From Spirochaetia bacterium (GTDB lineage Bacteria > Spirochaetota > Spirochaetia > UBA9216), in assembly GCA_965140585.1 (NCBI GenBank), contig OZ223265.1:192001-256000 (forward strand): DNA of 64,000 nucleotides. Direction: 5' to 3'. The notes below the pieces were generated by a model, which saw only the letters and a list, made by a program, of their open reading frames with translations, was not told where the DNA came from and made no database searches. A program made the position numbers and the translations under genes. Of the stretch, positions 6,505 to 24,253 are shown piece after piece (within the stretch, counting starts at the first letter, position 1; every line of letters begins with the position of its first letter).

Positions 6505-6590
6505 CCCCCTGGTTTAAGAAGCTGTTAATCAATATTCAGACAAAAAGCTTCCAAAGAACGCTTCAGCCTGAAAAACTTTTTAGATACAGA

Positions 6591-6622
6591 TAATCCACCG
6601 AAAGAATTCCTTCGGTGGATTA
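6591..6622 (-). terminator. hairpin between rplL and rpoB (attenuator-like)
   Basis: TAATCCACCGAA-AGAATTCC-TTCGGTGGATTA inverted repeat with only a weak U tail on the mRNA strand; same position as the E. coli rplL-rpoB attenuator. Confidence 0.6.
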
Positions 6623-6658
6623 AACGAGTATATTTTACAGTTACTCTGCGCCGGCAGA

Positions 6659-7039
6659 CTATTTAACTTCAATAGTTGCGCCAGCTGCTTCAAGTTTTTC
6701 CTTAATTGAAGCTGCTTCTTCTTTAGAAACACCCTCTTTAAGTACCTTCTCTCCGCCTTCAACAAGCTCTTTTGCTTCTTTAAGACCGAGGCCGGTGATT
6801 CCGCGTACTTCTTTGATTACTGCAATCTTCTGACCGTCAGCAAATCCTTTAAGAACTACGTCAAACTCTGTTTTTTCTTCGGCAGCTTCAGCAGCAGGAC
6901 CTGCCGCAGGACCAGCAGCAACTGCAACAGGAGCAGCAGCAGTAACACCGAATTTGTCTTCCATGGCAGTGATAAGCTCAGAGAGCTCAAGAACTGTCAT
7001 ACCAGCAATTGCTTCTAAAATTTCATCTTTTGTAGCCAT
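6659..7039 (-). CDS. rplL: 50S ribosomal protein L7/L12
   Basis: Ala-rich hinge, [25 protein letters not shown]. Confidence 0.99.
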
Positions 7040-7118
7040 ATTACCTTCTCCTTACAATAGATTTTTTATGCGGCAATAGCATGAGCTACCATGAAGACTA
7101 ATGCCGCGTTTAATATTA

Positions 7119-7661
7119 CTATTCTCCCTGTTCCTGCTTTTTGTCTGCAACTGCCTGCAGTGTGCGGACAAACTTTGTCGGAACAGCATTGAGAATGTAT
7201 ACAAAATTCTGAACCGGAGCATTCATTGTACCCATAAGTTTGGCAATAAGTTCCGGCTTTGTCGGAAGCTTTGAATAAGCCTCCATTTCCTTATCGTTAA
7301 AAACATCAGCGCCGATAAGACCACCCTTAACATCTACAGGAGCATCTTTAGCAAAAGCAAAAAGCTCTTTTGCGGCTGCACCGGCATCTTCACCTGAAAG
7401 AACAACAGCGGTAGGGCCTACAAGAAGATCACCAACCTCAGGTTTTCCAAGTTCTTTAAGTGCGATTTTGGCAAATCTGTTCTTAACTACCTTATAAACT
7501 GATCCCGATTCCCTGAGTTTATTTCTAAGCTCTGTGATCTGCTCAACAGTAAGACCACGGTAATCGGTGAATATAAAATTATCTATACCTTCGAAATCGC
7601 TTTTAAGCGCGTTGACAGCTTCGACTTTCTCCGGCTGGATTTTAACTAATTCATCTGTCAT
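7119..7661 (-). CDS. rplJ: 50S ribosomal protein L10
   Basis: DYRGLTV and VVKN motifs; synteny. Confidence 0.98.
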   Translation of the reverse strand: MTDELVKIQPEKVEAVNALKSDFEGIDNFIFTDYRGLTVEQITELRNKLRESGSVYKVVKNRFAKIALKELGKPEVGDLLVGPTAVVLSGEDAGAAAKELFAFAKDAPVDVKGGLIGADVFNDKEMEAYSKLPTKPELIAKLMGTMNAPVQNFVYILNAVPTKFVRTLQAVADKKQEQGE

Positions 7662-7678
7662 TTCAAATCTCCTTCAGC

Positions 7679-8359
7679 CTAAAGCTTGTCCTTAAAATCA
7701 ACCTTAACGCCGGGTCCCATAGTAGAAGACAGCGCAATGGTTCTAACAAAATCACCCTTTGTGTCAGCAGGTTTCTTTTTAACAATTTCAGAAACTACAT
7801 GAACTGCATTTTCTTCAATATTTGCAGGCTCCATTGAAACCTTGCCTATCGCAAGATGAACAACACCGGTTTTATCAGATCTGTACTCAACTCGACCTTT
7901 CTGAAGTTCTGCAAGAGCTCCCTTAATATCGAAAGTAACAGTCTGAGTCTTGGGGTTAGGCATAAGACCTCTTCTACCAAGAATAGGTCCAAGACGTCCA
8001 ACATCTTTCATCATATCCGGTGTTGCAACAGCAACATCGAAATCAAGCCATCCGCCCTTAATCTTTTCTATAAGATCATCATCACCGACATAGGCAGCAC
8101 CTGCCTCTTTAGCCTCTTCTACCTTATCGCCTTTGGCAAAAACAAGAATTTTCTTGTCACCGCTGAACTGAAATGGAAGAACAAGCGTATCTCTTACAGT
8201 CTGGCTCTTTTTGAGGTTAAGCTTAACTGAAAGCTCTACAGTCTCATCAAATTTAGCAAAAGCCATATCTTTAACAAGCCCGATCGCATCAGGATAACTG
8301 TATAATGTCTGCTTTTCATACTTCTTAGCAGCTTCGGTATATTTTTTTCCGCGTTTCAT
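7679..8359 (-). CDS. rplA: 50S ribosomal protein L1
   Basis: [22 protein letters not shown]. Confidence 0.99.
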
Positions 8360-8360
8360 C

Positions 8361-8792
8361 TCAGTCCTCCACCTCTATACCCATGCTTCTTGCTGTACCT
8401 GCAATAATGTTCATAGCTGCATCAATATCATTTGCGTTCAGATCGGGCATTTTCAGCTCTGCAATCTCTTTAACCTGAGCACGTTTGATTTTTGCAACTT
8501 TCACCTTGTGAGGCTCAGCTGAACCGCTCGAGATACCGCAGGCTTTCTTAATAAGAACAGCAGCAGGCGGGGTCTTTGTAACGAACGTAAAAGATTTGTC
8601 AGCATATACTGTAATAACAACAGGAATAGTAAGACCAGGCTCCATATTCTTTGTTTTGTCGTTAAACTGCTGAACAAAAGTAGGCGCTGATACACCATGA
8701 GGACCTAATGCGGGTCCAACAGGCGGAGCCGGAGTAGCCTTTCCGGCAGGTACCTGCAGCTTAATATAAGCTGTTACCTTCTTCTTAGCCAT
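8361..8792 (-). CDS. rplK: 50S ribosomal protein L11
   Basis: [21 protein letters not shown]. Confidence 0.99.
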
Positions 8793-8806
8793 TTATAAAC
8801 TCCTTC

Positions 8807-8846
8807 GTGGTATTAACGCGCTGTCCGTCTCCGGACACCACTCCCA
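8807..8846 (-). promoter_or_regulatory. L1-binding autoregulatory leader of rplK-rplA
   Basis: mRNA UGGGAG-[UGUCCG GAGA CGGACA]-GCGCGUUAAUACCAC just before the SD resembles the E. coli rplK leader (GGGAG...CGUUAUUACC). Confidence 0.7.
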
Positions 8847-8869
8847 TCCTCTTCCCTTACGGGAAATAT

Positions 8870-9424
8870 CTATAATTTTTCTACCTGAAGAAAATCAAGC
8901 TCTACAGGTGTAGCACGGCCGAAAATACCGACCATAACCTTAAGCTTTCCTTTCTCCAGATTAATTTCCTCTATAGAACCGGTAAAAGTATCAAAAGGAC
9001 CGTCAATAATCCTGATTGTTTCGCCAACAGCGTAAGACTGCTTGGGCTTCAGAACCCTGTCGGATTTAATCTCACCGGTCTTCTGCAGGATAGCTCTTGC
9101 TTCATCCTGACTGATCGGCTGAGGTTTAAAACCTTTTTGAGCACCGACAAAGCCGGTAACACCCTGAATAACCCTGATTTTTGAACAGACGGCTTCCCAT
9201 CTGACATCAGGAAGATCCATTTCAACCAGAATATAACCGGGAAGAAACTTCTTGGACGAAATTCTTTTCTTTCCGTCTTTTATTTCAACAACATCTTCAG
9301 CAGGAACTTTGATATCAAGAATTTTATCCTTGAGCTCTTCTTCCTCCATCAGAAGTCTGATGTATTTCTCTACCTTATTTTCGTAACCGGAGTACGTGTG
9401 AACAACATACCAGCCTTTAGCCAT
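8870..9424 (-). CDS. nusG: transcription termination/antitermination factor NusG
   Basis: [14 protein letters not shown] domain; KOW motif; [10 protein letters not shown]. Confidence 0.99.
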
Positions 9425-9555
9425 AACCTACCCTTCCTGCAGTAAACATTCCGGAAAACCACAAAAGACTGCGTTGCAGATTGTTTTTCTGAACACAGCC
9501 TGATTCTTAAGAATATTTAACTTTGTACGAAGCAGCGGAGCGCACCCCGCAAACC

Positions 9556-9738
9556 CTAACTGAAAAGCTTATCGATCCCTGAAACAAGCAGAAAATCCAC
9601 AAGTCCCAGAACAACTGCAAAGATTACAACCGACACAACGACAACCTTGGTTGAAGCGAGTACATCTTCCCTGCTGGGCCATGATACTTTTTTGAGTTCA
9701 GAGACACTTTCTTTAAAAAACTGGACAATCTTTTTCAC
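9556..9738 (-). CDS. secE: preprotein translocase subunit SecE
   Basis: ELKKVSWPSR plus one TM helix; synteny. Confidence 0.97.
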   Translation of the reverse strand: MKKIVQFFKESVSELKKVSWPSREDVLASTKVVVVSVVIFAVVLGLVDFLLVSGIDKLFS

Positions 9739-9769
9739 TTAGGGCTCCCGCTTAATATAAAAAAAAATA

Positions 9770-9843
9770 CAGGCCAGGTAGGATTCGAACCTACAACATC
9801 CGGTTTTGGAGACCGGCGCTCTAGCCGTTGGAGCTACTGGCCT
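9770..9843 (-). tRNA. tRNA-Trp (CCA)
   Basis: AGGCCAGTAGCTCCAACGGCTAGAGCGCCGGTCT-CCA-AAACCGGATGTTGTAGGTTCGAATCCTACCTGGCCTG cloverleaf; CCA end not encoded. Confidence 0.97.
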
Positions 9844-9852
9844 GTATATAAT

Positions 9853-10029
9853 TTACTTAATTTTTGATTCCTTATGAAGAGTATGCTTATTATCCCACTT
9901 ACAGTACTTCATAAGCTCGAGTTTTCCCTGCATATTTCGCCTGTTCTTTTTTGTAGTATAATTACGGCGATTGCATTCTTCACATTTCAGCGCTATAAGC
10001 TCTACAGCACCTTTATTTTTTTTAGCCAT
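9853..10029 (-). CDS. rpmG: 50S ribosomal protein L33 (58 aa)
   Basis: Below the ORF-track cutoff; translated by hand: [58 protein letters not shown]; AGGAG SD. Confidence 0.97.
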
Positions 10030-10057
10030 TTAAAGCATCTCCTATTTTCACTAGTAT

Positions 10058-10130
10058 AGCCTCCGCCCGGACTTGAACCGGGGACCCCCACCTTACCATG
10101 GTGGTGCTCTACCGACTGAGCTACAGAGGC
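10058..10130 (-). tRNA. tRNA-Thr (GGT)
   Basis: GCCTCTGTAGCTCAGTCGGTAGAGCACCACCAT-GGT-AAGGTGGGGGTCCCCGGTTCAAGTCCGGGCGGAGGCT cloverleaf. Confidence 0.97.
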
Positions 10131-10146
10131 ATTAAGCAGTGGCAGA

Positions 10147-10175
10147 AAGGTAACAAAGATATTTTTTTTTGTCAA
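10147..10175 (-). promoter_or_regulatory. sigma70 promoter of the tRNA-Thr/rpmG/secE operon
   Basis: TTGACA-N17-TACCTT with TGn extension. Confidence 0.7.
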
Positions 10176-10246
10176 TAGGATTTATGCCAATTCTGTCGCT
10201 ATCCGATGAGCTTAAATCTTAGTATATTTACAACAAAGGAGCAACT

Positions 10247-11047
10247 ATGAAATCACCTAAAGAAAGTGCACTTGATAAAAAAATATTAAAAAACCTGAGC
10301 GGAAAACCGCTTGCGGCAGTTGAATATATGATTAATGATGCAGAAATTAAAACACTGCAGGAATATGCAAATACGGTTTCAATTAAAAGGCTGAACTTCA
10401 ACGACCACGGGCCTGTCCACATGCGAAAGGTAGCCCTTAATGCTGTAACTATGGCCGAGATACTTAAAAAGAAGGGTATAAAGTTCAACCTTGAAAATGA
10501 GGAAGCCGGCGAGTATGAAGACAGCCTGACAGCACTAATGCTTGCCTCTTTTCTGCATGACACAGGAATGACCGTCGGACGTCAGGATCATGAGCATTCT
10601 TCGGTATTTCTGTCCATGCCGGTTATAGACAGAATCCTGAACCATGTTTATGGAGATAATATAGAAAAAAAGATAATTATTCGTTCTGTTACCATTGAAT
10701 GCATTGCCGGACACATGGGCAATCAGAGGATCCACTCGCTTGAAGCCGGACTTCTATTGATAGCTGACGGTCTGGACATGGAAAAAGGAAGGGCGAGGAT
10801 TCCCATGATGATAGAAACTGAATCGAAGGTCGGCGATATACATAAATATTCTGCAGCTGCCATTGAAAAGGTTAAAATTACCGAGGGAGATGAAAGACCG
10901 ATAAAAATTGAGGTCGAGATGACCGAATCTGTCGGATTTTATCAGATAGAGGAAGTTCTTTTCAGGAAAATCAATTCAAGCCCCCTCAAACCCTACATAG
11001 AGCTTGTAGCCGCCGTAAGGAATGAGGTGCCAAAGAAATATCTTTAA
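10247..11047 (+). CDS. HD-domain phosphohydrolase (COG3294-like)
   Basis: NDHGPVH...LHDTG...H...ADGLD metal-binding pattern; GRARIP. Confidence 0.85.
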   Translation: MKSPKESALDKKILKNLSGKPLAAVEYMINDAEIKTLQEYANTVSIKRLNFNDHGPVHMRKVALNAVTMAEILKKKGIKFNLENEEAGEYEDSLTALMLASFLHDTGMTVGRQDHEHSSVFLSMPVIDRILNHVYGDNIEKKIIIRSVTIECIAGHMGNQRIHSLEAGLLLIADGLDMEKGRARIPMMIETESKVGDIHKYSAAAIEKVKITEGDERPIKIEVEMTESVGFYQIEEVLFRKINSSPLKPYIELVAAVRNEVPKKYL

Positions 11048-11050
11048 ACC

Positions 11051-12292
11051 CTACTCATGTTCATGAGTAAGATGTCTGCTGATTATTTTTGAATTATCAA
11101 GAAGAGAACTGAGTGAGTTTCCATGATGAACCCTTGAGATGGTTCTTGCAAAAAGTTCGCTGATGGATGCTGACACATACCACTCTCTGTCCATCAGATT
11201 AGAGGTATGATATACGGAATTCGTACCGATTATCCTGTAAAAAAGCCCATCATTATAAGCTTTCTCAAAGGCTTCAGCAGCATCGCCGGTAAACAAGGGA
11301 AGGCTTATCGCACAGATAATCTTTTCGGCCCCCATCTCTTTAAGCATTTCCATTGCCTTAATGAGGGTTCCGCCGGTACCGAGCATGTCATCGGCCATAA
11401 AGACTATCTTTCCTCTTACATCACCAAGCAGTTTGGTTGTGGTAATGTTGGATTCACTGGCATTTGCAGAGACCTGTGAATAATCGCGTTCCTTGTAAAT
11501 CATGGCTAGCGGTTTTTTAAGGGTTCCTGCAAAATATTTATTCCGGTCAACAGCTCCTGTATCCGGAGAGACAACCACAAGATCATCCTTTGAAAAATCA
11601 ACAAGTTCACTTAAAGCACGGATAATCTGATATGAAGCATGAAGATTTTCAAGATGAAGAGACTGAAAGCAGTTTTCAATAGCTTTTGAGTGAATATCAA
11701 GGGTAATGATCCGTGAAACACCCATAAGCTCACAGGTCCTTCCAAACCATGCCGCAGTAAGCGCTTCCCTGCCCTTCTTTTTATGCTGACGGCTGTAGGG
11801 ATAGGTAGGAATAACAAGAGTCACACTCTTTGCTCCTGCCCCGATAATTGCATCAATAGTAGTAAAGAGAATCATCAGATGATCGTTTACAGAAAGCGCA
11901 CACTTCTCACTGCATCCGTTTATTTCAAGCGGATACTGGTTAGCTAAATCCTGAACGATATAGATATCCATATCACGGATAGAAGTCTGAATTTCAGACT
12001 TAACTTCTCCGTTTGCGAAGCGTGTGAACTTCACCGGAATCTGATAGGACGGGGCTTTATACTTCGTAACATCACGGTTTCTGGAACCCTTTGCCGAAGT
12101 CAGTTCATTTATAAAGTTAATATTTCTCACGACATCATCGCGTGAATAATCATATCTAGAAACAAGAGAGTCTGTAGTCTTCTTATAATACTTCAGATAT
12201 ATTGATTTAAGATTTGATATGATCTCGCTCGAAATCTTTTCCGCACCGGGACATGCAATGACCCCCAGCAGAGACGACCTTGTGAATACCAT
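11051..12292 (-). CDS. prs: ribose-phosphate pyrophosphokinase
   Basis: FANGE, PYSRQ, DIHS, SPDTG and DDMLGTGGTL PRPP-binding motifs; start moved to ATG 12292 (track gives 12343). Confidence 0.92.
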   Translation of the reverse strand: MVFTRSSLLGVIACPGAEKISSEIISNLKSIYLKYYKKTTDSLVSRYDYSRDDVVRNINFINELTSAKGSRNRDVTKYKAPSYQIPVKFTRFANGEVKSEIQTSIRDMDIYIVQDLANQYPLEINGCSEKCALSVNDHLMILFTTIDAIIGAGAKSVTLVIPTYPYSRQHKKKGREALTAAWFGRTCELMGVSRIITLDIHSKAIENCFQSLHLENLHASYQIIRALSELVDFSKDDLVVVSPDTGAVDRNKYFAGTLKKPLAMIYKERDYSQVSANASESNITTTKLLGDVRGKIVFMADDMLGTGGTLIKAMEMLKEMGAEKIICAISLPLFTGDAAEAFEKAYNDGLFYRIIGTNSVYHTSNLMDREWYVSASISELFARTISRVHHGNSLSSLLDNSKIISRHLTHEHE

Positions 12293-12444
12293 AGAAACCA
12301 CCAGAATTTGATAACTGACTCTAACATTTTTGTTGAAAGGCATTCAATAGCAGCCAGTATTTTTATCGGGATAATTCTATATATATTCACAGCATACGGA
12401 GAGAGAACATGAAGTTTAGAAACACTTTTACGGTTTAATTCCAT

Positions 12445-14272: not shown

Positions 14273-15637
14273 TTACAATAAACTGACTGCAGTTCCGCAG
14301 AGAGAAGTAACTGCTGCATCAAGTACTGATTTATAAGCAGCGGCCTGTTCTTTAAGCAGGCTGTTTTCTTTTACAGCCGCCTCAAGATTAAGCTTTCCGG
14401 CTGTACCGGTACTTATCCTTGATTTATTCACCTCTGAGGCGTCCATATCACCATACTTTTCAAGATTCAGACCGACTTCCCGATAGGCATCACGGAAACT
14501 CATTCCGCCGTCAACAAGTTCATATGCTGCATCTGTAGCAAAAATATCAGGTGAAAACCCTTTAAGAAGATTCTCTTTATTAACAATCAGCTTTGAGAAA
14601 GTAAGATTCATTATATCAAAACACTGACCGGCTAGATCAATTCCCCTGAGGTAGGGTTCCTTTGTTTCCTGAAAATCACGGTTATAACCTGATGGCAGTG
14701 AGCGAACAATCTGCTTAACGTTCATTGAATATGAAGACAGGGCTGCTGATTTGGCACGCATCAGTTCAAGCCCGTCGGGATTCTTTTTCTGCGGCATAAT
14801 ACTGGAGCCTGTACAGAGTTCTGCAGGAAGACTGAAATAGCCGAACTCAGGCAATGAAAACAGGATAAGATCCTGCGCAGCGCTGCTTAAAACAAGCACA
14901 GCATGCTCAAGGGCATTCAAAACAAGGGATTCAAGCCTTCCGCGTGAATTATTAACGTAGATGACATTATTCTGCACTTTGGCAAAGCCCATCAGTTCAG
15001 CTGTCATTTCACGGTTAAGCGGAAGTGGAGTTCCATAACCTGCCGCAGCGCCGAGGGGACACTGATTTACAAGAGTATATATGGATGAAAGGTTTTTCAG
15101 ACTGTCAATTAGCTCTTCGGCCCAGGCGGCAGCCCACAGGCCTACCGAAGAAGGCATTGCTATCTGCATATGTGTGCGTCCCGGCATAGGCACAGACCTA
15201 TTGGCCTTTGCAAAATCCAGAATTGTTTCGACAAGCGAGGTTCCGCGTTCAATCAGGTCAAGAACCGCCGCCCTGGAGAACATCCGCAGAGCGGTCTGAA
15301 CCTGATCGTTCCGGGATCGTCCGGTGTGTATTTTTTTTCCGGCGTCTCCTATGCTGTCAATCAGGTAATTTTCGATAGCAGTATGACAGTCCTCGTCGGA
15401 ACGCTCAATATGGAATTTGTCATCCTTCTGAAGATTGATTATCTCATTCAGACCTTTTTCAAGCTTTTCAAGATCCTCTGCTGTGAGAATATCTATCGAA
15501 TGAAGCATTCGGGCCTGGGCAATACTTGCAACACAGTCAGAGGGCACCAGCGCAATATCAAGCTGATAGTCCAGACCTACTGTAAATTTCTCAACCAGTT
15601 CATTGAGTTCATAATTTTTCTGCCAAAGTTTTGCCAT
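14273..15637 (-). CDS. argH: argininosuccinate lyase
   Basis: HTGRSRNDQ, MPGRTHMQ, GSSIMPQKKNPD, YNRDFQE. Confidence 0.96.
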   Translation of the reverse strand: MAKLWQKNYELNELVEKFTVGLDYQLDIALVPSDCVASIAQARMLHSIDILTAEDLEKLEKGLNEIINLQKDDKFHIERSDEDCHTAIENYLIDSIGDAGKKIHTGRSRNDQVQTALRMFSRAAVLDLIERGTSLVETILDFAKANRSVPMPGRTHMQIAMPSSVGLWAAAWAEELIDSLKNLSSIYTLVNQCPLGAAAGYGTPLPLNREMTAELMGFAKVQNNVIYVNNSRGRLESLVLNALEHAVLVLSSAAQDLILFSLPEFGYFSLPAELCTGSSIMPQKKNPDGLELMRAKSAALSSYSMNVKQIVRSLPSGYNRDFQETKEPYLRGIDLAGQCFDIMNLTFSKLIVNKENLLKGFSPDIFATDAAYELVDGGMSFRDAYREVGLNLEKYGDMDASEVNKSRISTGTAGKLNLEAAVKENSLLKEQAAAYKSVLDAAVTSLCGTAVSLL

Positions 15638-15701
15638 TCCACTCTCCCGAATTTTGTCACATACTATATAATTTCGGTTATTATTTCAACTTCCGGAAGA
15701 T

Positions 15702-17132
15702 CTATCTTAACGCTGCGGCTGCGTATTCTCCGGCCATTCTTCCGGAGTTCAGTGCAAAACCGAAACCGTGCCCACTCAGAATTACATTGTAAACATCTGC
15801 ATCCACACCGCCGAAATCGACTCCTGCAACATAAAGATTCTCCACAGGGTTGAAATCATCCCCGAGCGCCCGGAACTGCTCATCAACCCGGATTCCGCCA
15901 TGAGTAATAAGCATATCAACACCGGCTTTCACCGCATAATACGGCGGGCTTGAACACTCAAGCAGAGCCTTCCTGCTTTTTGCATACATGGCATCGCGTC
16001 CTGAAGCACAGAAGCTGTTATAGCGTGCCAGAGTTTCCGTAAGGGCTTGGAGCTGACAACCTATGAATGCTGCTATCTCATTTAGATTATCGCTTTGCAG
16101 AAGCACACCTGATTCAACTGCCTTGGTGATGGAATCATCAAGCCGCCGTTCTGCATCGGGAGAGATATGAATGAGTTCTATCATGTCCCTGCCGTCGGCC
16201 AGAGTCTTATCCATTATCCGGCTGTCAAACAATACCCACATTTCGGCACCGGGCTGGCGAAGGCAGGCATTTGCGGCCATTGAGAAGTTATACACAATAC
16301 CTTCATCAGCAAAACGCCGGCCGCCTCGGTTAAGCCAGATATTCCAGGGCTTGCCGATCAGCAGATTAAGCGGTTCGAAGCCCTTAATCTTCGGAGCAGC
16401 CATTTCCATGGCAAAATTGCCTTCAATTGCAGCTCCTGCCTCAAGAGCCATATTAACTCCGTCTCCGGTATGCCTCATCCCGTGTCCGGGAGTAACGGTT
16501 TCAGGGTCGAACCCCGGGTAATACCTGCTGATCATTTCATTGTTTCCGGCAAAGCCGCCGGTACAGATTATCACCTTTGAAGCGGCTACCCGTATTTCTC
16601 CCTCTGATGCGGATACAGCAGTCAGACCGCAGACTGTACCTGAGGCATCGGTGTGCAGGCTCTTTGCAGTACAGCCTGTAAGAATTTTTACTCCACGACC
16701 GGCACAGAAATCCTCCAGAGCCTTTATCACAGCCTTTCCCGCATTCAGGTCCTTATCGGTAATATGAAAAACCTCGGGAGTCTGTCCCGGCAGATGATGC
16801 ACGACATCGGAGAACTCAACCCCCTTCCCTGTCAGCCAGGCAATTGTGTCACCGCTTTTATCAATAAGGCTGCGAACAAGGTCGGGATCTATTTTCCAGT
16901 GGGAATACTCCATGGCGGCCCTGAAAACCTCATCAGCATCCGAGTTAACAAGTTTACGCTTCTGTACAGGGCTGTTAACGGCAAATATACCGCGGGGAAA
17001 GAGCCCGTTGCCGCCGACTTTTTTGTTCTTTTCAACAACTACCACACTTGCGCCTGCTTCGGCAGCAGCAGCTGCAGCAGCCATACCTGAAGCGCCACCG
17101 CCGACTACTGCAACATCACAGTTTATATTCAC
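15702..17132 (-). CDS. cytoplasmic FAD-dependent oxidoreductase, flavocytochrome c/FAD_binding_2 family (not fumarate-type)
   Basis: GGGASG Rossmann motif, ICTGGF, THGGIRVD, LYVAG; GTG start at 17132 with GGAGG SD; no signal peptide; lacks the HHTMGG / GxNRLGG fumarate residues. Confidence 0.88.
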   Translation of the reverse strand: MNINCDVAVVGGGASGMAAAAAAAEAGASVVVVEKNKKVGGNGLFPRGIFAVNSPVQKRKLVNSDADEVFRAAMEYSHWKIDPDLVRSLIDKSGDTIAWLTGKGVEFSDVVHHLPGQTPEVFHITDKDLNAGKAVIKALEDFCAGRGVKILTGCTAKSLHTDASGTVCGLTAVSASEGEIRVAASKVIICTGGFAGNNEMISRYYPGFDPETVTPGHGMRHTGDGVNMALEAGAAIEGNFAMEMAAPKIKGFEPLNLLIGKPWNIWLNRGGRRFADEGIVYNFSMAANACLRQPGAEMWVLFDSRIMDKTLADGRDMIELIHISPDAERRLDDSITKAVESGVLLQSDNLNEIAAFIGCQLQALTETLARYNSFCASGRDAMYAKSRKALLECSSPPYYAVKAGVDMLITHGGIRVDEQFRALGDDFNPVENLYVAGVDFGGVDADVYNVILSGHGFGFALNSGRMAGEYAAAALR

Positions 17133-17165
17133 GAAATACCTCCGGACTTGCAACCAATTTGATAT

Positions 17166-17195
17166 AAAAAAAGAGGAACCTGAAAGAGTCCTCCT
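17166..17195 (-). terminator. intrinsic terminator inside the operon, with an alternative antiterminator pairing
   Basis: AGGAGGACTCT-TTC-AGGTTCCTC followed by T7 on the minus strand. Confidence 0.6.
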
Positions 17196-17220
17196 ATACT
17201 AAATAATTCTATTTATTTTT

Positions 17221-18126
17221 TCAAACCCAGGAGGACTCTACCCCCGGGGCCTGGACGCTCACATAGCGATGAATTCCCTGAATCTTACCTGAGTGAAAGC
17301 ATACAATCTCGGCGGTGAGACCGGTAGCCGGCATTTCCTTAAGGATTTTTCTGCCGGTTTTATCCGCGGCCTCTACGGTTTTCCGGTGCATATCAATCAT
17401 ACAGGCAGGAACAAAGCATGAAGCTGTTGAACCAGGAACGATATAAGCAGACACAAAACCGGGAACTACACCGAAACTAATCACAACTCCCTGCGCTGCA
17501 TCTGCAATGAGAACACGTGCTTTGGGATCTGAAGGGCGCCCCGAAATAAATGATGCAGGAATGGTAACAGGCCCCGCAGAAGCAGCTTTTTCATCCATGA
17601 TTGCCTCAAGGTAATCCGGATCTTCATATACTATTCCGCCCATCTCCATGAGTACGCTTTGTTCAGAGGCCTCAAACTGCTCACCGGAACTTCCGTCAAA
17701 GACAGCTTTTCCTACGGCAAGAAGTTCTTCACGTGAGGCTTTCTGCGCTTCAGGAATATCAGAGCTCCACTGCCGCGGAATCTTTTTCATTTCTTCGGGA
17801 AGAAAGACAAATCCGGCGTCAACCCGTGAACGGACGATATAGAGTTCAAGTTCACTTATAAATCCGCCATCTATCCTGAGCCTCCCGAAAAAGATTGCCT
17901 GCTTTCCCGACTCATCGAGATTTGCCGTAACAAACAGCTGGCCTGTTTCAGGATCTGAGAAGAATTGCGCTATATAATTCAGCCCTGTAACACTGCTCCA
18001 GCAGCTCATCATTACAAGAGCTCCGGGTTTTCCATTCTCGGTCGCAGCGTATGTATCCGCAAACGGGAGAAGGTCAGGGTTCTGTTTGATCATCGACTGA
18101 AATAATATATCCGCAAAACTTCTCAT
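17221..18126 (-). CDS. hypothetical protein (TENG motif; possibly tandem SnoaL/NTF2-like fold)
   Basis: 301-aa ORF co-oriented and tightly spaced with the permease; the fold is only a guess. Confidence 0.75.
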   Translation of the reverse strand: MRSFADILFQSMIKQNPDLLPFADTYAATENGKPGALVMMSCWSSVTGLNYIAQFFSDPETGQLFVTANLDESGKQAIFFGRLRIDGGFISELELYIVRSRVDAGFVFLPEEMKKIPRQWSSDIPEAQKASREELLAVGKAVFDGSSGEQFEASEQSVLMEMGGIVYEDPDYLEAIMDEKAASAGPVTIPASFISGRPSDPKARVLIADAAQGVVISFGVVPGFVSAYIVPGSTASCFVPACMIDMHRKTVEAADKTGRKILKEMPATGLTAEIVCFHSGKIQGIHRYVSVQAPGVESSWV

Positions 18127-18143
18127 ATTTTATTATATCCAGT

Positions 18144-19499
18144 CTAGTACATTATCATAGCCATGATAGTAACTATCACTGTGGCTACTGCTGTAACACC
18201 GACTGTTGAAAACAGGATTGGCGGATAACCTTCTTTCTGCTTGATACCGGTAAGAAGCATTATTGCGACAACCATTGTTCCAAACGGAAGGGTATCAAGA
18301 ACAAAGCCTGAGAATGCTACAATTCTGTGCGCAGCAATAGCGCTGATTCCCATAACCGGAATAAAAAGGTCATGAGCAAGGTTGAACATAACGATAAGCC
18401 CGGACATTGAGGCTGAAATACCGATTATCAGGATTGAAAGAACTGCAAAGAGTATGTAGGGACTGATCGAGCCCTGCATTCCGCCGATCCCCTGTACCAT
18501 CCATCCGAAAGCCGGAGTTGATGAGATAAGCTGACCGAGAGCCATGTTGATGAGGATAATTGCCGGAATACCCGCAATTTCAGCACCGCTGTTGAACTGT
18601 TCAACAAGCTTGTTGAGTTTTGCAATCGGCTTGCTCTTTCCTGATTCCTCATTATAAGGCATGTACGGGTAGAACAGAAGAACTGAAATACCGACACCTA
18701 CAAGAAGTGAAAAGAAGGGACTGAGGTGCAGAATATTAAAACAAACAAAGATGGCTGCTGTAGGAATAAGGATAAAAAACCATGGGGGAAGGTTTTTTTC
18801 TTCAAACCTTGCCTGTGAAAGGGGTCCGAACTCAAAATTATGACCTGCAGCTACATCTTTTTCCCACATTCTTGACATTCCCCAGAGGGATGCAACAAGA
18901 ATAAAAAGTCCGCCGGTAATAGCAATTGCCGGAGCTGCCATAGCGCTTGTATCAACAAGAAACTGAACAGCAAATATATTTATTATTGACGGAGTACCCG
19001 GAAGCGCACCGCCTACGGTTGAACCTAGGATGATAAGAACTGCAATAAAACGACGGGGGATGTTTACCTCATGCATAACACTAGCTGCAATTGCTATCTG
19101 TGTGAAAAGAATTGCAAAGTTATCAATACCCGCATAGGCCATAAGAACACCCATAAGGATAATGAGGAAAGCGCCCACGAGTCTTTTTTTAGGTGCTGAC
19201 AGGTTTCCGGTGAGTGCACGGAGAACTGTTTTGGCGAAGGAATCCGCCGCACCGCTGACTGATACGATTTTTCCGAACGTTGCGCCCGCCAGGAACAGCG
19301 GTATGAGTGTTCCTGCCATCATTCCGATACCCTTGTTGATTGTTTCATCCCATGATTTGCCGATTGCAAGTCCGCTGGTGATCATCAAAATCAGGGCGAC
19401 GATTATTGATACCCAGGAAAGATGCAGTCCCTTGTATGTCAGGAGAATGAGCATAACAAACCCTAACAGGACTCCAAATACTGATAGTGCTATAGACAT
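18144..19499 (-). CDS. GntP/IT-superfamily organic-acid permease
   Basis: Polytopic membrane protein; LFLAGATFGK, LPGTPSIIN and LDTLPFG motifs typical of H+/gluconate symporter-like permeases. Confidence 0.85.
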   Translation of the reverse strand: MSIALSVFGVLLGFVMLILLTYKGLHLSWVSIIVALILMITSGLAIGKSWDETINKGIGMMAGTLIPLFLAGATFGKIVSVSGAADSFAKTVLRALTGNLSAPKKRLVGAFLIILMGVLMAYAGIDNFAILFTQIAIAASVMHEVNIPRRFIAVLIILGSTVGGALPGTPSIINIFAVQFLVDTSAMAAPAIAITGGLFILVASLWGMSRMWEKDVAAGHNFEFGPLSQARFEEKNLPPWFFILIPTAAIFVCFNILHLSPFFSLLVGVGISVLLFYPYMPYNEESGKSKPIAKLNKLVEQFNSGAEIAGIPAIILINMALGQLISSTPAFGWMVQGIGGMQGSISPYILFAVLSILIIGISASMSGLIVMFNLAHDLFIPVMGISAIAAHRIVAFSGFVLDTLPFGTMVVAIMLLTGIKQKEGYPPILFSTVGVTAVATVIVTIMAMIMY

Positions 19500-19601
19500 A
19501 TAGCCCTCCTATTCTTTTTAAAAGACATCCGCCCCGGTAATCCGCATACAATTTAACCAGATACTAACTAGGCATTAATGCTTTTATTGATATTGATGCA
19601 C

Positions 19602-19799
19602 ATTATAAAATCCCGATATTTACTTATCTACATGACGGAAGAACAAAAAATCCTGCTGATTTGTGCGCAAAGACCAAATCGGCGTATGTGGGAGCATTAA
19701 ACAGGTTGCGGCCCTGCTTTTATATCACATCTCAGCACAAAAAGCTCTCGGAATTTGTGCTGGGGGCATGATGTCTGCTTTTCCGGTGTCCACTATAAT
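19602..19799. promoter_or_regulatory. divergent activator-dependent promoters with PucR/CdaR-type boxes
   Basis: G(C/A)ACAAA-N12-TTTGTGC at 19641-19666 and 19735-19760, each 33 nt from a TATAAT (19602-19607 minus; 19794-19799 plus) with a poor -35. Confidence 0.75.
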
Positions 19800-19829
19800 A
19801 GCATTACACTGAATAGGAGACTTTATACA

Positions 19830-21536
19830 ATGTACAAAATTGCGGATACCTGTGTCGGATGCCACAACTGTGCTATGGAATGCCCCATGCAGGCCATAAA
19901 CTATGCAGGTCTTAAGTATGAAATAGATCAGGATAAATGCGTTGAATGCGGGTTATGCGAAAAACTCTGTCATACAGCAAGCATAAAAGATATTGATGCG
20001 GATGTTATAATAGAAAAACACGAACCCTTTGATATGGAATGCGATCTGGTTGTCTGCGGATCCGGAACAGGAATGATCGCAGCAGTTAGAGCCGCTCAGA
20101 CCGGCAAAAAGGTCATAGTGCTTGAAAAGTCAAAAAAGACCGGCGGTAATACCGATTACGCTCACATGTTTTTCCCTGTATACACCGAACTTCATAAAAG
20201 AGACAACTTTGAAGATGTAAGGGTAGATGCCGTTGAGGAGTTCTGGAACAGATCAGGCAAAAAAATTGAAAAAGAACTGATTGAAACTGCTGTTTATACC
20301 TCGGGAGAGTTCTTTGACTGGCTGCTTCAGTTCCCGGAGACTGAAAAACATTTTGATATTGTATCTCTGGGCTCACAGAGAAATGTAGGACCGATGTATA
20401 CGTCGGCGATGATTGTTTTTCCCGACCGAATGTATCATAACCTGCTCTGCAGGGATCCGGCTATCGGCCCAGGCTGGGCAGGAACATTCATAAAGTACCA
20501 GATGTTTAAAACAATAAGGGAGCAGAAGCTTAATGTTGAGATAATGACCGAAACCGCAGCAAAACATCTGACTGTTGATGAGAGCGGGGCAGTAACCGGT
20601 GTAACAGCCGAAGATGCAGGCGGAATCATCAACATCAAGGCTAAAGCCGTTGTTCTTGCCACCGGCGGAATGGGAAGAAGCGACGAAAAGCTGCAGAAGT
20701 ATTTCAATTTCTTCGATTGCGAAACCCCTATACACCGCTTCTCAGTGCCCTCAGACACGGGAGATGCAATCGATATGCTGCAGGAACTTGGTGTAGAACC
20801 TGATCCGCAGCGGATGTTCGTATCAACCTTCGGACCGGCTCACCATCCGTTCAGCTACTGTCTTTACAGGATTCTTGAGCACCCTACAAGCCTCTGGATT
20901 AATCTTAACGGAGAACGCTGGCAGGATGAAACCGGTGGACTGATGACAGGAAGATTCACAATTAAGGATCAGCCAAAGGAAATCACCTGGGGCATTTACA
21001 GTCAGGCAGGAATAGACAGGATTGCAGAACAGTACATTAACGATCCGGCGCTGGCTAAGGAAAAAATTGTTTATGAGTGCTATCAGCAGGATCTTGATGA
21101 AGAAATTGCTTTACCGAAACCCCCGGTATACAAGGCGAATACTATTGAAGAACTTGCTGAAAAACTTGGAATAGATTCAGCCAAACTGGCCGAAACTGTA
21201 GAAAAATATAACGGATTCTGTAAAGCAGGCAAGGATGATGAATTCAGCAAGCCAGAGAAAAATCTCATTGAACTTGAAAGCTCTGGCCCTTACTACGCTA
21301 TTTACGGACAGCGCTTTTCTGAAGGAGCCTTCGGCGGATTAAGAGTAAACCCTAAATGCGAGGTAACAAGAGAAGACGGCTCAGTTATTCCGGGACTCTA
21401 CGGTGTAGGTGATGCTACATCAGCAATGCATATTCAGGGAGAACTTGCTCCGATATCAGAATTGACATGGGCTACAGCCTCTTCATTTCTGTCCGGCGGA
21501 AATGCGTCTGAATACATAGATAAGCTGAATAAATAA
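19830..21536 (+). CDS. 2x[4Fe-4S] ferredoxin fused to a FAD_binding_2 flavoprotein
   Basis: CVGCHNCAMECP and CVECGLCEKLC motifs, then VVCGSGTG, LATGG, GGLRVN, GLYGVGD; ATG 19830 with AGGAG SD. Confidence 0.9.
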   Translation: MYKIADTCVGCHNCAMECPMQAINYAGLKYEIDQDKCVECGLCEKLCHTASIKDIDADVIIEKHEPFDMECDLVVCGSGTGMIAAVRAAQTGKKVIVLEKSKKTGGNTDYAHMFFPVYTELHKRDNFEDVRVDAVEEFWNRSGKKIEKELIETAVYTSGEFFDWLLQFPETEKHFDIVSLGSQRNVGPMYTSAMIVFPDRMYHNLLCRDPAIGPGWAGTFIKYQMFKTIREQKLNVEIMTETAAKHLTVDESGAVTGVTAEDAGGIINIKAKAVVLATGGMGRSDEKLQKYFNFFDCETPIHRFSVPSDTGDAIDMLQELGVEPDPQRMFVSTFGPAHHPFSYCLYRILEHPTSLWINLNGERWQDETGGLMTGRFTIKDQPKEITWGIYSQAGIDRIAEQYINDPALAKEKIVYECYQQDLDEEIALPKPPVYKANTIEELAEKLGIDSAKLAETVEKYNGFCKAGKDDEFSKPEKNLIELESSGPYYAIYGQRFSEGAFGGLRVNPKCEVTREDGSVIPGLYGVGDATSAMHIQGELAPISELTWATASSFLSGGNASEYIDKLNK

Positions 21537-21547
21537 CGAGGAAAGCA

Positions 21548-22966
21548 ATGAGTACAAACATAAGAAAACCTGACATGACACCGCAGAAAACCGCAATGCC
21601 GGCTCAGGCTCCGTCAGTCAGAATTGATAATTACAATGAGATTAAAACCGGTTATACCGCCGATCTGGCAGTAATGGAAGCTCTAAGATGCATGAACTGT
21701 CCCGGACAGTACTGCGCGGCAAACTGCCCTATTCATAACCCGATTCCGGAAATAAATAAAAAGATTAGTGAAAAGGATTTCGACGGAGCATGGGAACTGC
21801 TGAATTCGAACAGCCCCCTTCCCGAAGTCTGCAGCAGGGTCTGCGACCAGGCTAAGCAGTGTGAGAGTGAATGCTCCAGAAGCATAAAGCATGAATCAGT
21901 AAGCATTGGTGGACTGGAGCGCTTTCTGGCAGACAGATACGCCGGAAAAAATAACGGAATAAAAATAGCCCCCTCAACAGGAAAAAAGGCAGCCGTTATC
22001 GGCGCGGGGCCCGCCGGAATATCAGCGGCATGGGATCTTATGCGGAATGGACATGCTGTAACAGTTTTTGAAAAACAGGAAGAGCCCGGCGGACTGATGA
22101 TGTACGGAATTCCGAACATGAAGCTCGACAAGGAACTTCTGACAAAGCGTTTTGGTCTGATGAAAGAGATGGGTGTAAAATTCATCTGCTGCACCGAGGT
22201 TTCAAAGGATATTTCGGCAGCGGATCTGCTTAAGGGTTATGATGCGGTACTTGTTGCAATTGGAACTGCAGAAAGCAGAAAGCTTCAGATTCCCGGAAGT
22301 GACGCCGTGGGAATTATTCCTGCGGTTGAATACCTCAAAGCCGGCACTAAGAATGCTATCGAGGATGGATATGTTATTGATCCCGGGCTGAATGCTGCAG
22401 GAAAGAACGTAATAATAATCGGTGCCGGTGATACAGGGACAGACTGTCTGGGAACTGCTGTCCGTCAGGGTGCCGCCTCAGTTTACCAGTTTGAAATAAG
22501 CCCTAAACCGGATGTGGCTCCGGGAGCAGAAAAGCTGCCCTGGAAGGAATGGCCCAAAATCTTCAAGACTGAATACGGTCAGGAAGAAGCTATCAGCAAA
22601 TTCCATGAAGACCCGAGAATTTACAGCATCTTCACTGAAGAAATCATCAAAACCCCTGAAGGAACTGTTGAGGCTGTAAAAACAAAGGATTCCGAGGGTA
22701 CAGAAAAAACATGGAAGGCCGACATGGTCATTACAGCCATGGGTTTCACCGGTCCGGATACCGGAGTACTTAAAGAGCTTGGAATCAGGATCGACAAAAA
22801 GGGAAATATCTCTGCGGATGAAGATGACTACAGCACAGGTGTTGATAAAGTTTTTGCATGCGGTGATGCTCGACGCGGCCAGAGTATGGTTATCTGGGGA
22901 GTTGCGGAAGGAAAAGAGGCAGCAGCTTCGATTGACAGATATCTTTCAGCTGATTCCAAAAATTAA
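21548..22966 (+). CDS. GltD/NfnB-like Fe-S flavoprotein NAD(P)H oxidoreductase subunit (no gltB nearby)
   Basis: RCMNC..CAANCP, CSRVC..QCESEC, GAGPAG, GAGDTGTDC, GDARRGQSMVIW. Confidence 0.9.
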   Translation: MSTNIRKPDMTPQKTAMPAQAPSVRIDNYNEIKTGYTADLAVMEALRCMNCPGQYCAANCPIHNPIPEINKKISEKDFDGAWELLNSNSPLPEVCSRVCDQAKQCESECSRSIKHESVSIGGLERFLADRYAGKNNGIKIAPSTGKKAAVIGAGPAGISAAWDLMRNGHAVTVFEKQEEPGGLMMYGIPNMKLDKELLTKRFGLMKEMGVKFICCTEVSKDISAADLLKGYDAVLVAIGTAESRKLQIPGSDAVGIIPAVEYLKAGTKNAIEDGYVIDPGLNAAGKNVIIIGAGDTGTDCLGTAVRQGAASVYQFEISPKPDVAPGAEKLPWKEWPKIFKTEYGQEEAISKFHEDPRIYSIFTEEIIKTPEGTVEAVKTKDSEGTEKTWKADMVITAMGFTGPDTGVLKELGIRIDKKGNISADEDDYSTGVDKVFACGDARRGQSMVIWGVAEGKEAAASIDRYLSADSKN

Positions 22967-23008
22967 ATAATCAATTTGCTGTATCGATTATCCGGAACAG
23001 CTTCTACC

Positions 23009-24253
23009 CTAAAACGGGGCCGCCTGGCCCCGTTTTTTATTGCTGTATTCCAGTATCCTTAATGAAAAAATAAAAGAAAACATCTCATTTCCTTCATCAA
23101 TTCTGGTATCAAGCAATTCAAGACACCTGTTTATCCGGTATGATACAGTGTTCCTGTGAATTTTCATTATTTCCGCTGTTTTTGAAATACTGCGCAAAGA
23201 CTCGAGATACATGTGCAGTGTCGGAACAAGATCGGTCTTATGCTTGATGTCATAGTCCTCAAGAGCAAGAATTTTACGATGACAGAACTGCTTCAGATCA
23301 TACAGCCCGGACGCAGTATCAAACATATGGTATATGGAATTTTCGTTGTAGGCGAAATACAAACTGCCGTTTTTGAGCGTTGATGCAACATCGAGCATAC
23401 AGCGGGCCTGCTGAAAATGGTCATAAAGCTCGCTCAGATCGGGAAAGCTCCTGCTTATTCCGGCTATCAGGTTATGCTTCTTCAGAAGATCAGTCATCCC
23501 CGGATCCTCATTCTCCCAGTCGCTTATCCAGTTTTCTGAATTATAGACTCTGACTATCAGATTGTTGTAAATCATAGTCCTGCAGCAATTTGTATACTGA
23601 AAGGCGTGAATAATATCCTTGATAGGAGCGGTCTCCTGATCTTTCCTTGAACATATAACTATTACATAATTATAGGGGCGGCTGTTCCAGTCGAGAATTT
23701 TAATATATTCCTGCATGGCCTCACTAGGCACCTTTTCATTATTCAGAAGTCGGATAAGGAAGTTTTCAACAGATCTTTTATTTGATGAAATATTGTAATT
23801 TCTGCGTTGAAGCTGAACGATGGCATAGTAGGAAAGGATTTCCATCAGCTCAATATCTTCTTCTTTAAACGGCCTGCAGTAGGCCGGGGAGATCATTGTG
23901 CCTACATGGACACCGCCCACAGTGAGTGTTTTTATAAGCCTGGGAATAGGAAGATGGCTGTCTTCAACTATTACCGGGAGATGGCTTTTTATTGAGCCCA
24001 TATGGGCGGATTCAACCTCTTTAATCTGCGCCTGCCTAAGAGGCTGCTGACCGCCCTCATCGATGATAGTCTGTCTCCATGAAGGGTCTTCTATCTGAAC
24101 ATTTTTTGAATATGCAAGCTTGACCTGAGCCCTGTCTTCGATAAATACCGGGTTGCCAAGCACTTCGTAGGCCAGGTCTGCAATTCCCTGCAGAGAAGAA
24201 ATCTGCGTTCCCCTGCACAGCAGTGAACACAGCTCTTTTGTTTCTTCAACCAT
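23009..24253 (-). CDS. PucR/CdaR-family transcriptional regulator
   Basis: GAF-like N-terminus; C-terminal LVPTLHMYL...TAEIMKIHRNTVSYRI HTH. Confidence 0.92.
   Translation of the reverse strand: MVEETKELCSLLCRGTQISSLQGIADLAYEVLGNPVFIEDRAQVKLAYSKNVQIEDPSWRQTIIDEGGQQPLRQAQIKEVESAHMGSIKSHLPVIVEDSHLPIPRLIKTLTVGGVHVGTMISPAYCRPFKEEDIELMEILSYYAIVQLQRRNYNISSNKRSVENFLIRLLNNEKVPSEAMQEYIKILDWNSRPYNYVIVICSRKDQETAPIKDIIHAFQYTNCCRTMIYNNLIVRVYNSENWISDWENEDPGMTDLLKKHNLIAGISRSFPDLSELYDHFQQARCMLDVASTLKNGSLYFAYNENSIYHMFDTASGLYDLKQFCHRKILALEDYDIKHKTDLVPTLHMYLESLRSISKTAEIMKIHRNTVSYRINRCLELLDTRIDEGNEMFSFIFSLRILEYSNKKRGQAAPF
23011..23038 (+). terminator. intrinsic terminator of the flavoprotein-gltD-like operon, lying in the regulator 3' end
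   Basis: AAAACGGGGCC-GCCT-GGCCCCGTTTTTT. Confidence 0.75.

Follow-up and report, generated by a model that had tools for sequence, protein, structure and literature searches.

A putative PucR-controlled divergent gene cluster in Spirochaetia that joins fumarate-reductase-fold flavoproteins to a GltD-like subunit and a DUF8021-like protein

Introduction

Reductases of the fumarate-reductase fold (FAD_binding_2; FAD, flavin adenine dinucleotide) are described from gut anaerobes, in those parts of two preprints that deal with them, as secreted respiratory enzymes or as cytoplasmic enzymes with flavin-only electron input (bioRxiv 10.1101/2022.12.26.521950, bioRxiv 10.1101/2023.03.04.531086). In the relevant part of the second, NADH:2-enoate reductases built on FAD_binding_2 combine an OYE-like or FAD_binding_6 NADH module with a flavinylated FMN_bind mediator (bioRxiv 10.1101/2023.03.04.531086). 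The Vibrio cinnamate reductase Crd, acrylate reductase (Ard) and Klebsiella NADH:fumarate reductase are of this kind and perform cytoplasmic, NAD(P)H-driven reduction of unsaturated acids at an FAD_binding_2 domain. Here, we analyzed a 64,000-nt stretch of contig OZ223265.1 from a Spirochaetia bacterium (hereafter the window, to which all positions refer) and describe a divergent cluster of six genes at 15702–24253, which encodes two FAD_binding_2 flavoproteins (A and B), a GltD-like subunit, a DUF8021-like protein, a permease and a PucR-family regulator. The cluster differs from Crd- and Ard-type enzymes in that a 2x[4Fe-4S] ferredoxin domain would serve as mediator and a separate GltD-like subunit as donor module. 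Since the known FAD_binding_2 enoate reductases have flavin-only input, input through Fe-S clusters and a GltD-like subunit would be a new variant.

In GltB-GltD, PreT-PreA and NfnAB, a GltD-type subunit feeds a catalytic partner via further Fe-S clusters, as we propose here; the difference is that the catalytic partner in the present cluster has the fumarate-reductase fold and is not GltB, a dihydroorotate dehydrogenase (DHODH)-like protein or NfnA. Among proteins of solved structure, both A and B come closest to flavocytochrome c3 (Fcc3) and urocanate reductase (UrdA), which have the FAD_binding_2 fold in common with them, whereas A and B lack the fumarate His/Arg set, haem, an FMN_bind domain and a signal peptide. 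The vinylphenol reductase VprA of Lactiplantibacillus plantarum resembles A in that it is cytoplasmic, stands alone and has about 480 aa, a likeness that comes from an NCBIfam model and not from direct sequence comparison. Where one article treats its distribution, VprA is reported to be confined to lactobacilli, and tetrahydrodaidzein reductase is called a glycyl radical enzyme in the same part (PMC11572103).

Results

The make-up of the cluster suggests a PucR-controlled divergon for the import and cytoplasmic flavin-dependent reduction of a non-fumarate organic acid, a reading that we hold with about as much belief as doubt. The original prediction had placed six genes here, and all six open reading frames (ORFs) proved to be real. 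The left arm, on the minus strand, consists of a polytopic membrane permease of 451 aa (18144–19499), the DUF8021-like protein of 301 aa (17221–18126) and flavoprotein A (ORF 15702–17153 from a TTG codon; FAD_binding_2, E 3.4e-47). The right arm, on the plus strand, consists of flavoprotein B (ORF 19755–21536), in which a 2x[4Fe-4S] ferredoxin domain is fused to FAD_binding_2 (E 6.8e-47), and a GltD/NfnB-like subunit (21548–22966), the gene of which begins 11 nt past B. The 414-aa PucR-family regulator (23009–24253, minus strand) converges on this arm, and between the two convergent genes the terminator scan showed a strong, strandless hairpin of 11 pairs with T-runs (23011–23036), which is likely a two-way terminator. 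Database relatives were used to correct two starts: that of A to the GTG codon at 17132 (15702–17132; 476 aa, as in the 476-aa copy P0076) and that of B to the ATG codon at 19830 (19830–21536; 568 aa). The enzymes had been claimed to lack export signals and, in a check of sequence and hydropathy made with no dedicated predictor, no N-terminal signal-like segment was seen in A, the 301-aa protein, B or the GltD-like subunit.

A phmmer search of the Protein Data Bank (PDB) showed that the solved structures closest to A are Shewanella Fcc3 (E 9e-42, 147 bits) and UrdA (E 4e-33). In the phmmer alignment with Shewanella Fcc3, the fumarate His/Arg positions of A are occupied by M251, Y288, L415 and I458. 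The claim that A carries MLITHGG instead of the fumarate-reductase motif was thus confirmed, the substitutions sitting in MLITHGG and DVYNVILSGHG. The fumarate set, which comprises His365, Arg402, His504 and the Arg of the NRLGG motif, is kept in neither A nor B; judged by these active-site residues, A and B are not fumarate reductases. The two are paralogues (28% identity), and B carries two CxxCxxCxxxC ferredoxin motifs at its N-terminus, ahead of FAD_binding_2. FMN_bind, OYE-like and FAD_binding_6 domains were not found by Pfam in A, B or their neighbors.

The active sites were compared in an alignment of 117 A-type, 120 B-type and 6 Actinomycetota sequences, the last being flavoproteins encoded beside DUF8021 genes (see below). 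In the A-type sequences, the Arg402 position is Tyr in 86 of 117 (Y288 in A), and a His lies three residues past the His504 position in 103 of 117 (H418). Of the 120 B-type sequences, the His504 position is Glu in 119, the Glu378 position is Arg in 105 and the Arg402 position is Leu in 97. The Actinomycetota partners have His at the His504 position and Glu at the Glu378 position, in all six cases each; all six score higher against B than against A, and their active-site set differs from both. A quick tree placed A, B and the Actinomycetota partners in three groups; because it contains neither an outgroup nor characterized members, it assigns no function.

The top NCBIfam family for both flavoproteins was VprA (NF053717), with 292 bits for A and 178.5 bits for B against a cutoff of 600. 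The likeness of A to VprA, which the original prediction had proposed along with one to tetrahydrodaidzein reductase, therefore stands as a best match but not as membership: with scores this far below the cutoff, neither A nor B belongs to the family. At least 1234 relatives of B exist in the protein database, mostly labeled Oscillospiraceae or Clostridia; the 120 listed are all at least 54% identical to B, and most have precomputed Fer4 domains. The plasmid collection gave a single distant B match (27% identity). G+C content is higher around A, at 0.494 for 16–18 kb compared with about 0.42–0.45 in the flanks.

The GltD-like subunit has the parts of a GltD/NfnB/PreT module, namely an N-terminal 2x[4Fe-4S] domain (Fer4_20, E 3.7e-32) followed by FAD and NAD(P)H Rossmann domains (Pyr_redox_2, E 5.9e-24). 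It scored 433.7 bits against the model of the glutamate synthase small subunit (TIGR01317), short of the membership cutoff of 447.7. Its best PDB matches are the small chain of glutamate synthase (GOGAT; 7mfm, 328 bits) and NfnB (4ylf_B, 244 bits). GltB was not found among the scanned ORFs of at least 110 aa in the window, and the gene upstream of the GltD-like one is B.

The 301-aa protein had no Pfam or NCBIfam match, and sequence and profile searches of the PDB gave nothing meaningful. A word-indexed search returned 75 homologues, all unnamed or 'hypothetical', 9 of which bear a precomputed PF26061 (DUF8021) label; the PF26061 model of the local Pfam copy matched neither the 301-aa protein nor the homologues bearing that label. 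In a protein-language-model atlas, its nearest clusters are DUF8021 (0.94–0.96). An AlphaFold2 (AF2) model built from an alignment of 27 homologues (predicted local distance difference test, pLDDT, 93.3; predicted template modeling score, pTM, 0.91) showed two alpha+beta cone domains. The top Foldseek match, the two-domain polyether epoxide hydrolase Lsd19 (E 4e-5), is also made of two fused NTF2-like cones, but its whole-chain template modeling (TM) score is 0.29, and the domain arrangement therefore differs. Dozens of further Foldseek matches, many with probability 1.00, were ketosteroid isomerases (KSI), limonene epoxide hydrolases (LEH), SnoaL-like cyclases and PhzA/B, and single domains gave target-normalized TM scores of 0.5–0.7 against LEH/KSI-type proteins. 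No sequence similarity to Lsd19, LEH, KSI or the BaiE dehydratase was detectable, and their catalytic residues are not matched. Judging from the model, the Foldseek matches and the labels of homologues, the 301-aa protein is a cytoplasmic DUF8021-like protein of two NTF2-like domains (SnoaL/KSI/LEH fold).

A profile search of 1.84 billion representatives gave 1127 relatives at E<=1e-3, of which 57 reached E<=1e-30. All 24 N-terminally extended relatives that were inspected start with a signal-peptide-like hydrophobic leader, followed in most by a CDRxCL-type motif; thus, the family is broader and has secreted forms besides the cytoplasmic branch into which the 301-aa protein falls. In 84 full-length relatives, a set of conserved polar residues was found mainly in the first domain (T29, E30, N31, D58, E72, R82, E92, E94 and R99), with D58 kept in all 84. 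By analogy with LEH or KSI, this pattern would allow general acid-base catalysis. Residue 157 of the protein is Ser and is Cys in 76 of the 84 relatives. A fusion of DUF8021 to a known enzyme was sought among 27 long relatives (490–683 aa), in which Pfam found no domain and which seem to be duplications; in the forms of 560–680 aa (among P0323–P0440), the profile matched in two to four stretches. No DUF8021 match was found in the plasmid collection, and no paper mentioning DUF8021 or PF26061 was found in open-access papers and preprints, their supplements not being covered.

Conservation was assessed in 19 loci that encode a relative of the 301-aa protein, which together with the window make 20 sources; neighbors were counted within 7 kb of the DUF8021 gene. 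The nearest relative in the genome collection, L001, is a Spirochaetia metagenome-assembled genome (MAG) with about 90% DNA identity over 16.4 kb. It has the same gene order and neighbors, with flanking proteins 96–99% identical; A is absent, and the other five genes are intact. Positions 15695–17151 of the window are replaced in L001 (reverse complement 9873–9926) by 54 nt that resemble both ends of the gene, indicating a deletion in the L001 lineage and not an insertion in the window. The presence of A therefore differs between close lineages. Read by eye, a hairpin at 17166–17194 (minus strand), with a 5-bp stem (GAGGA/TCCTC), a loop of about 10 and then T7, lies between the stop of the DUF8021-like gene and A. 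It was not reported by the terminator scan, is retained in L001 ahead of the lyase gene, and may to some extent keep the permease transcript from reaching A.

Co-occurrence elsewhere had been named as a test of the original prediction, and all six genes were found together, at 62–84% identity, in a Spirochaetales MAG (L010) despite rearrangement; there the order is PucR>A>, <GltD<B, permease>DUF8021>, and a molybdopterin oxidoreductase and an Fe-S subunit follow the DUF8021 gene. Adjacency of B and the GltD-like gene is kept in all three Spirochaete loci (window, L001 and L010). From the linkage in L001 and L010, the recurring set consists of the permease, the DUF8021 protein, B, the GltD-like subunit and PucR. 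The description of the divergon as 'self-contained' proved too strong, as A is deleted in L001, a molybdenum (Mo) enzyme follows the 301-aa gene in L010, and the 301-aa gene pairs with other oxidoreductases in other phyla. In L010 (6546–8262 and 4954–6549), the B homologue is split into two overlapping ORFs of 192 and 432 aa, and the GltD-like ORF overlaps the convergent A gene by 156 nt; both are probably frameshifts or assembly errors. The DUF8021 gene of L019 is split too.

The permease had been called GntP-like, and this holds remotely. In its favor, the atlas neighbors are all GntP/CitMHS/DcuC clusters (0.97–0.98), and a relative in the Clostridiales MAG L003 has a weak GntP_permease match (27.8 bits); against it, the 451-aa protein has no Pfam match even at E<=10, including GntP (PF02447), and none in NCBIfam. 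Hydropathy analysis showed many hydrophobic segments, in keeping with a polytopic, remotely GntP/ion-transporter-superfamily-like protein, and identity to its relatives is 99% in L001, 80% in L010 and 23% in L003. We regard it as a putative importer of an organic anion.

The PucR regulator has a C-terminal HTH_30 domain (residues 342–400, E 3.5e-14), a weak GGDEF_2-like middle domain and an unclassified N-terminus; its homologues are 98% identical in L001, 82% in L010, 46% in L003 and 24% in L014. Candidate boxes for it had been proposed at both promoters. When no more than one mismatch is allowed in each half, the motif GCACAAA-N12-TTTGTGC has exactly two matches in the 64 kb, and both fall in the 330-nt divergent spacer (mean of 0.14 and maximum of 2 in 100 shuffles). 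Box 1 (19641–19666) is GAACAAA-N12-TTTGTGC with one mismatch, and box 2 (19735–19760) is GCACAAA-N12-TTTGTGC with perfect half-sites; both are strandless. Both are also present in L001 and L010, where the half-sites and flanks (CATG about 10 nt out) are conserved and the spacers vary, and their spacing is 62 nt in L010 compared with 94 nt in the window. L003 has one copy, ahead of its permease gene. The proposed boxes were thereby borne out as a conserved operator. Across the 20 sources, the box is present in the four whose PucR is at least 46% identical and absent from the other 16; by this co-occurrence, PucR is the candidate binder of the 26-bp palindromes.

On the permease arm, a promoter-like site (19602–19630, minus strand; TAGATA-17-TATAAT, 10 of 12, a match to consensus only) falls between box 1 and the permease gene. 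On the right arm, about 70 nt separate box 2 from the downstream ATG of B, and a TATAAT read by eye at 19794–19799 lies between them. If transcription starts about 7 nt past each -10 element, both boxes would be centered at about -58, a position that would suit an activator.

Near the DUF8021 gene, FAD_binding_2 proteins were found in 10 of the 20 sources and Zn-dependent alcohol dehydrogenases (Zn-ADHs) in 6 others, so that 16 of 20 have one or the other within 7 kb. The remaining four are L009 (a 3.6-kb contig), L011 (with an adjacent short-chain dehydrogenase/reductase, SDR), L012 and L018. PucR is nearby in 5 of 20, a GntP-like permease in 4 and a molybdopterin enzyme in 4. Five Actinomycetota loci have an intact flavoprotein gene whose end is 32–44 nt before the DUF8021 match, with tripartite ATP-independent periplasmic (TRAP) or branched-chain-type ATP-binding cassette (ABC) transporter genes upstream; the five partner flavoproteins scanned also had VprA as best NCBIfam match (130–205 bits against the cutoff of 600). 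In three Bacillota loci, a Zn-ADH gene lies directly upstream of DUF8021. The Zn-ADHs are best matched by the scyllo-inosose 3-dehydrogenase and threonine dehydrogenase models, both under cutoff. The GntP-like, TRAP or ABC transporter genes near DUF8021 genes share a carboxylate transport theme.

In L003, the operator, a GntP-like permease, an unknown 354-aa protein, an alpha/beta hydrolase, a Zn-ADH, DUF8021 and PucR stand in one row (5443–12370); the regulatory unit is common to this locus and the window, whereas the redox enzymes differ. Molybdopterin oxidoreductases lie by DUF8021 in L010 (10988–13739) and L014 (11393–13936), and about 5–6 kb off in L007 and L019. Those of L010 and L014 have no twin-arginine (Tat) signal, and their best matches are acetylene hydratase (2e7z) and polysulfide/thiosulfate reductase (2vpw). 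Genes for an esterase, GH3, Amidohydro_2, SDR and cyclase proteins are found near DUF8021 in some loci.

Across the loci, the parts near DUF8021 genes are of the same kinds as in bai-type logic, that is, a permease, an NTF2 dehydratase, flavoprotein reductases and an alcohol dehydrogenase. The difference is that the flavoproteins here are FAD_binding_2 proteins and that no CoA ligase or transferase is present; the Bai reductases and OsrA/OsrB are Fe-S flavoenzymes of OYE/FadH type in the part of the article that describes them (PMC11482826). Gut steroid reductases were accordingly set aside as relatives, since OsrA/OsrB are FadH/OYE-type (PMC11482826) and a term search of PMC12238238 gave no mention of fumarate reductase, ferredoxin or NTF2.

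Discussion

Uptake followed by cytoplasmic flavin chemistry on a non-fumarate substrate, as originally predicted, fits the domains, the missing fumarate residues and the shared operator. In the mechanism that we favor, the permease would bring in an organic acid, and the two proteins of the right arm would together make up an NAD(P)H-dependent reductase. The GltD/NfnB-like subunit would oxidize NAD(P)H at its FAD, and electrons would pass through its two [4Fe-4S] clusters and the two [4Fe-4S] clusters of B to the FAD of B and on to an activated C=C bond. Such wiring would be like that of glutamate synthase or the PreT-PreA dihydropyrimidine dehydrogenase (DPD), with a fumarate-reductase-fold module as the catalytic part. 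The tandem NTF2 (DUF8021) protein would be a cofactor-less enzyme that isomerizes or (de)hydrates the substrate or product. A would be an accessory VprA-like flavoprotein, with a conserved Tyr in place of the proton-donating Arg, that reduces a second carbonyl- or phenol-activated double bond. Acting on the two 26-bp palindromes, PucR would turn on both arms with an inducer. With NAD(P)H at about -320 mV and an enoate or enone at about 0 mV, electrons run downhill to the latter and uphill in reverse. We favor the reductive direction because, by standard potentials, the chain is downhill only that way.

As to the substrate, our guess is an acid of plant origin, either hydroaromatic or phenolic, of the shikimate/quinate or hydroxycinnamate type. 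Weak hints toward it are the VprA likeness, the cyclitol-type Zn-ADHs, the esterase, GH3, Amidohydro_2, SDR and cyclase neighbors, and the Mo enzymes of L010 and L014. Gut bacteria have secreted flavin reductases that reduce shikimate and cinnamates, according to the part of a preprint that concerns them (bioRxiv 10.1101/2022.12.26.521950); such substrates are therefore used, by different enzymes.

Several points weigh against this reading. Signal peptides occur in many DUF8021 relatives, and the family is not tied to cytoplasmic flavoproteins. A is not essential to the set, because it has been cleanly deleted in L001. In B, no obvious acid is present at the Arg402-equivalent position, where Leu predominates. 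The three different conserved active-site sets of A, B and the Actinomycetota partners indicate that DUF8021 is not partnered with one orthologous enzyme. The promoter positions are consensus matches and by-eye readings. Finally, the GltD-like subunit lies near true glutamate synthase small subunits and may have a moonlighting or unrelated role.

The alternative that survives best, though we consider it improbable, is oxidative catabolism: a KstD/ChcC-type desaturation beside the ketone of an alicyclic or steroid-like acid, in which the NTF2 protein would be an isomerase or dehydratase and the GltD-like subunit would dispose of the electrons. The models of KstD and of a 4-oxocyclohexanecarboxylate desaturase are among the NCBIfam matches of A, B and the Actinomycetota partners, but the KstD-model scores lie under the VprA and flavocytochrome scores, and the PDB similarity of A to KstD is weak (65 bits compared with 147 for Fcc3). 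The conserved Tyr of A at the Arg402 position would suit this chemistry, as KstD uses a catalytic Tyr. In steroid degraders, NTF2-fold ketosteroid isomerases accompany KstD, and the Zn-ADH partners in Bacillota could make the ketone. However, passing electrons from C-C desaturation to NAD(P)+ via the GltD-like module would be uphill by known redox potentials, and the hosts look like fermentative anaerobes.

Less probable than oxidation is a hydroxycinnamate/vinylphenol route, in which p-coumarate, caffeate or ferulate would be imported, B and the GltD-like subunit would reduce the side chain in an HcrAB-like manner, the NTF2 protein would replace phenolic acid decarboxylase and A would reduce the vinylphenol. 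VprA is the best NCBIfam match for A, B and all five Actinomycetota partners scanned, but every score is less than half of the cutoff. Cytoplasmic Mo enzymes like acetylene hydratase, near DUF8021 in L010 and L014, would also fit, as this clade contains catechol dehydroxylases. To our knowledge, no NTF2-fold phenolic acid decarboxylase exists. Lactobacilli run both side-chain reduction and the vinylphenol route on the same acids, as set out in the part of PMC11572103 on their metabolism. Feruloyl-esterase-type and alpha/beta hydrolases, GH3 glycosidases and an Amidohydro_2 protein are encoded near DUF8021 in L003, L015 and L016, whereas the Zn-ADH partners do not fit this route, and A is dispensable in L001.

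Less probable again, the two arms could be unrelated neighboring units, with B and the GltD-like subunit forming a general redox enzyme (an Nfn-like transhydrogenase or one of nitrogen metabolism) and the permease operon standing apart. The GltD-like subunit is 14 bits under the cutoff for glutamate synthase small subunits and resembles NfnB, and outside the Spirochaetes no DUF8021-retrieved locus pairs a ferredoxin-fused B-type flavoprotein with a GltD-like gene. Nevertheless, the same operator stands at both promoters and nowhere else in the 64 kb, and in the rearranged L010 the B–GltD and permease–DUF8021 pairs are still divergently joined with both boxes present. Moreover, homologues of B and DUF8021 occur on contigs of equal size (1,126,856 and 15,239), which suggests that they are the same contigs; adjacency was not seen. 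Least probable of all is electron bifurcation, in which the NfnB-like subunit would split the NAD(P)H pair, sending one electron to the substrate via B and the other uphill to ferredoxin with conservation of energy: the subunit is homologous to bifurcating NfnB and the gap in potential from NAD(P)H to an enoate is large enough, but it scores higher against the non-bifurcating glutamate synthase small chains, a linear GOGAT- or DPD-like chain accounts for all domains, and neither a separate ferredoxin nor a second acceptor site was evident in domain scans of the window.

Returning to linear reduction by B and the GltD-like subunit, the parts come from known superfamilies and the importer-regulator-reductase logic is ordinary; what is new is the wiring proposed for the reductase, its association with a tandem NTF2 protein, and the operator. 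The gene combination had not been recognized as described, and in keeping with this we found no description of it in open-access papers and preprints (supplements not covered) and no characterized enzyme close to it. If the wiring is as proposed, an enzyme whose ferredoxin-fused catalytic subunit draws electrons from a GltD-like one would be a third type beside the secreted respiratory and flavin-only ones, in a family as large as that of the B relatives. The cluster also gives DUF8021 a first functional context, beside oxidoreductases and carboxylate transporters in three phyla. A bolder proposal, which we regard as rather unlikely, is that B and the GltD-like subunit are the first recognized case of a widespread class of cytoplasmic Fe-S-wired NAD(P)H:ene-reductases that work with a DUF8021 enzyme, let anaerobes dispose of electrons on a hydroaromatic or phenolic acid from plants and maybe conserve energy by bifurcation at the NfnB-like flavin; if true, this would be the first function for the DUF8021 family. 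The conserved 26-bp operator and its dedicated regulator offer a practical route to the substrate. Should the substrate prove ordinary, the gain in annotation would be tidy and modest.

Directly downstream of A lies an ArgH-type gene (14273–15637, minus strand), which covers only profile positions 9–392 of 455 and has a weak match to the C-terminal domain. We considered whether this lyase gene completes the left arm as its fourth member and decided against it: the score exceeds the argH cutoff (314 compared with 279.5 bits), a separate promoter-like site serves the gene, and L010 lacks it. Beyond the cluster, a domain scan showed the window to be chromosomal Spirochaete DNA, with rpoB, an L7/L12-L10-L1-L11-nusG block, clpB, sugar ABC transporters and chemoreceptors. 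A 387-aa leucine-rich-repeat protein is encoded at 62583–63746 (minus strand), with scores far under the cutoffs of the internalin models.

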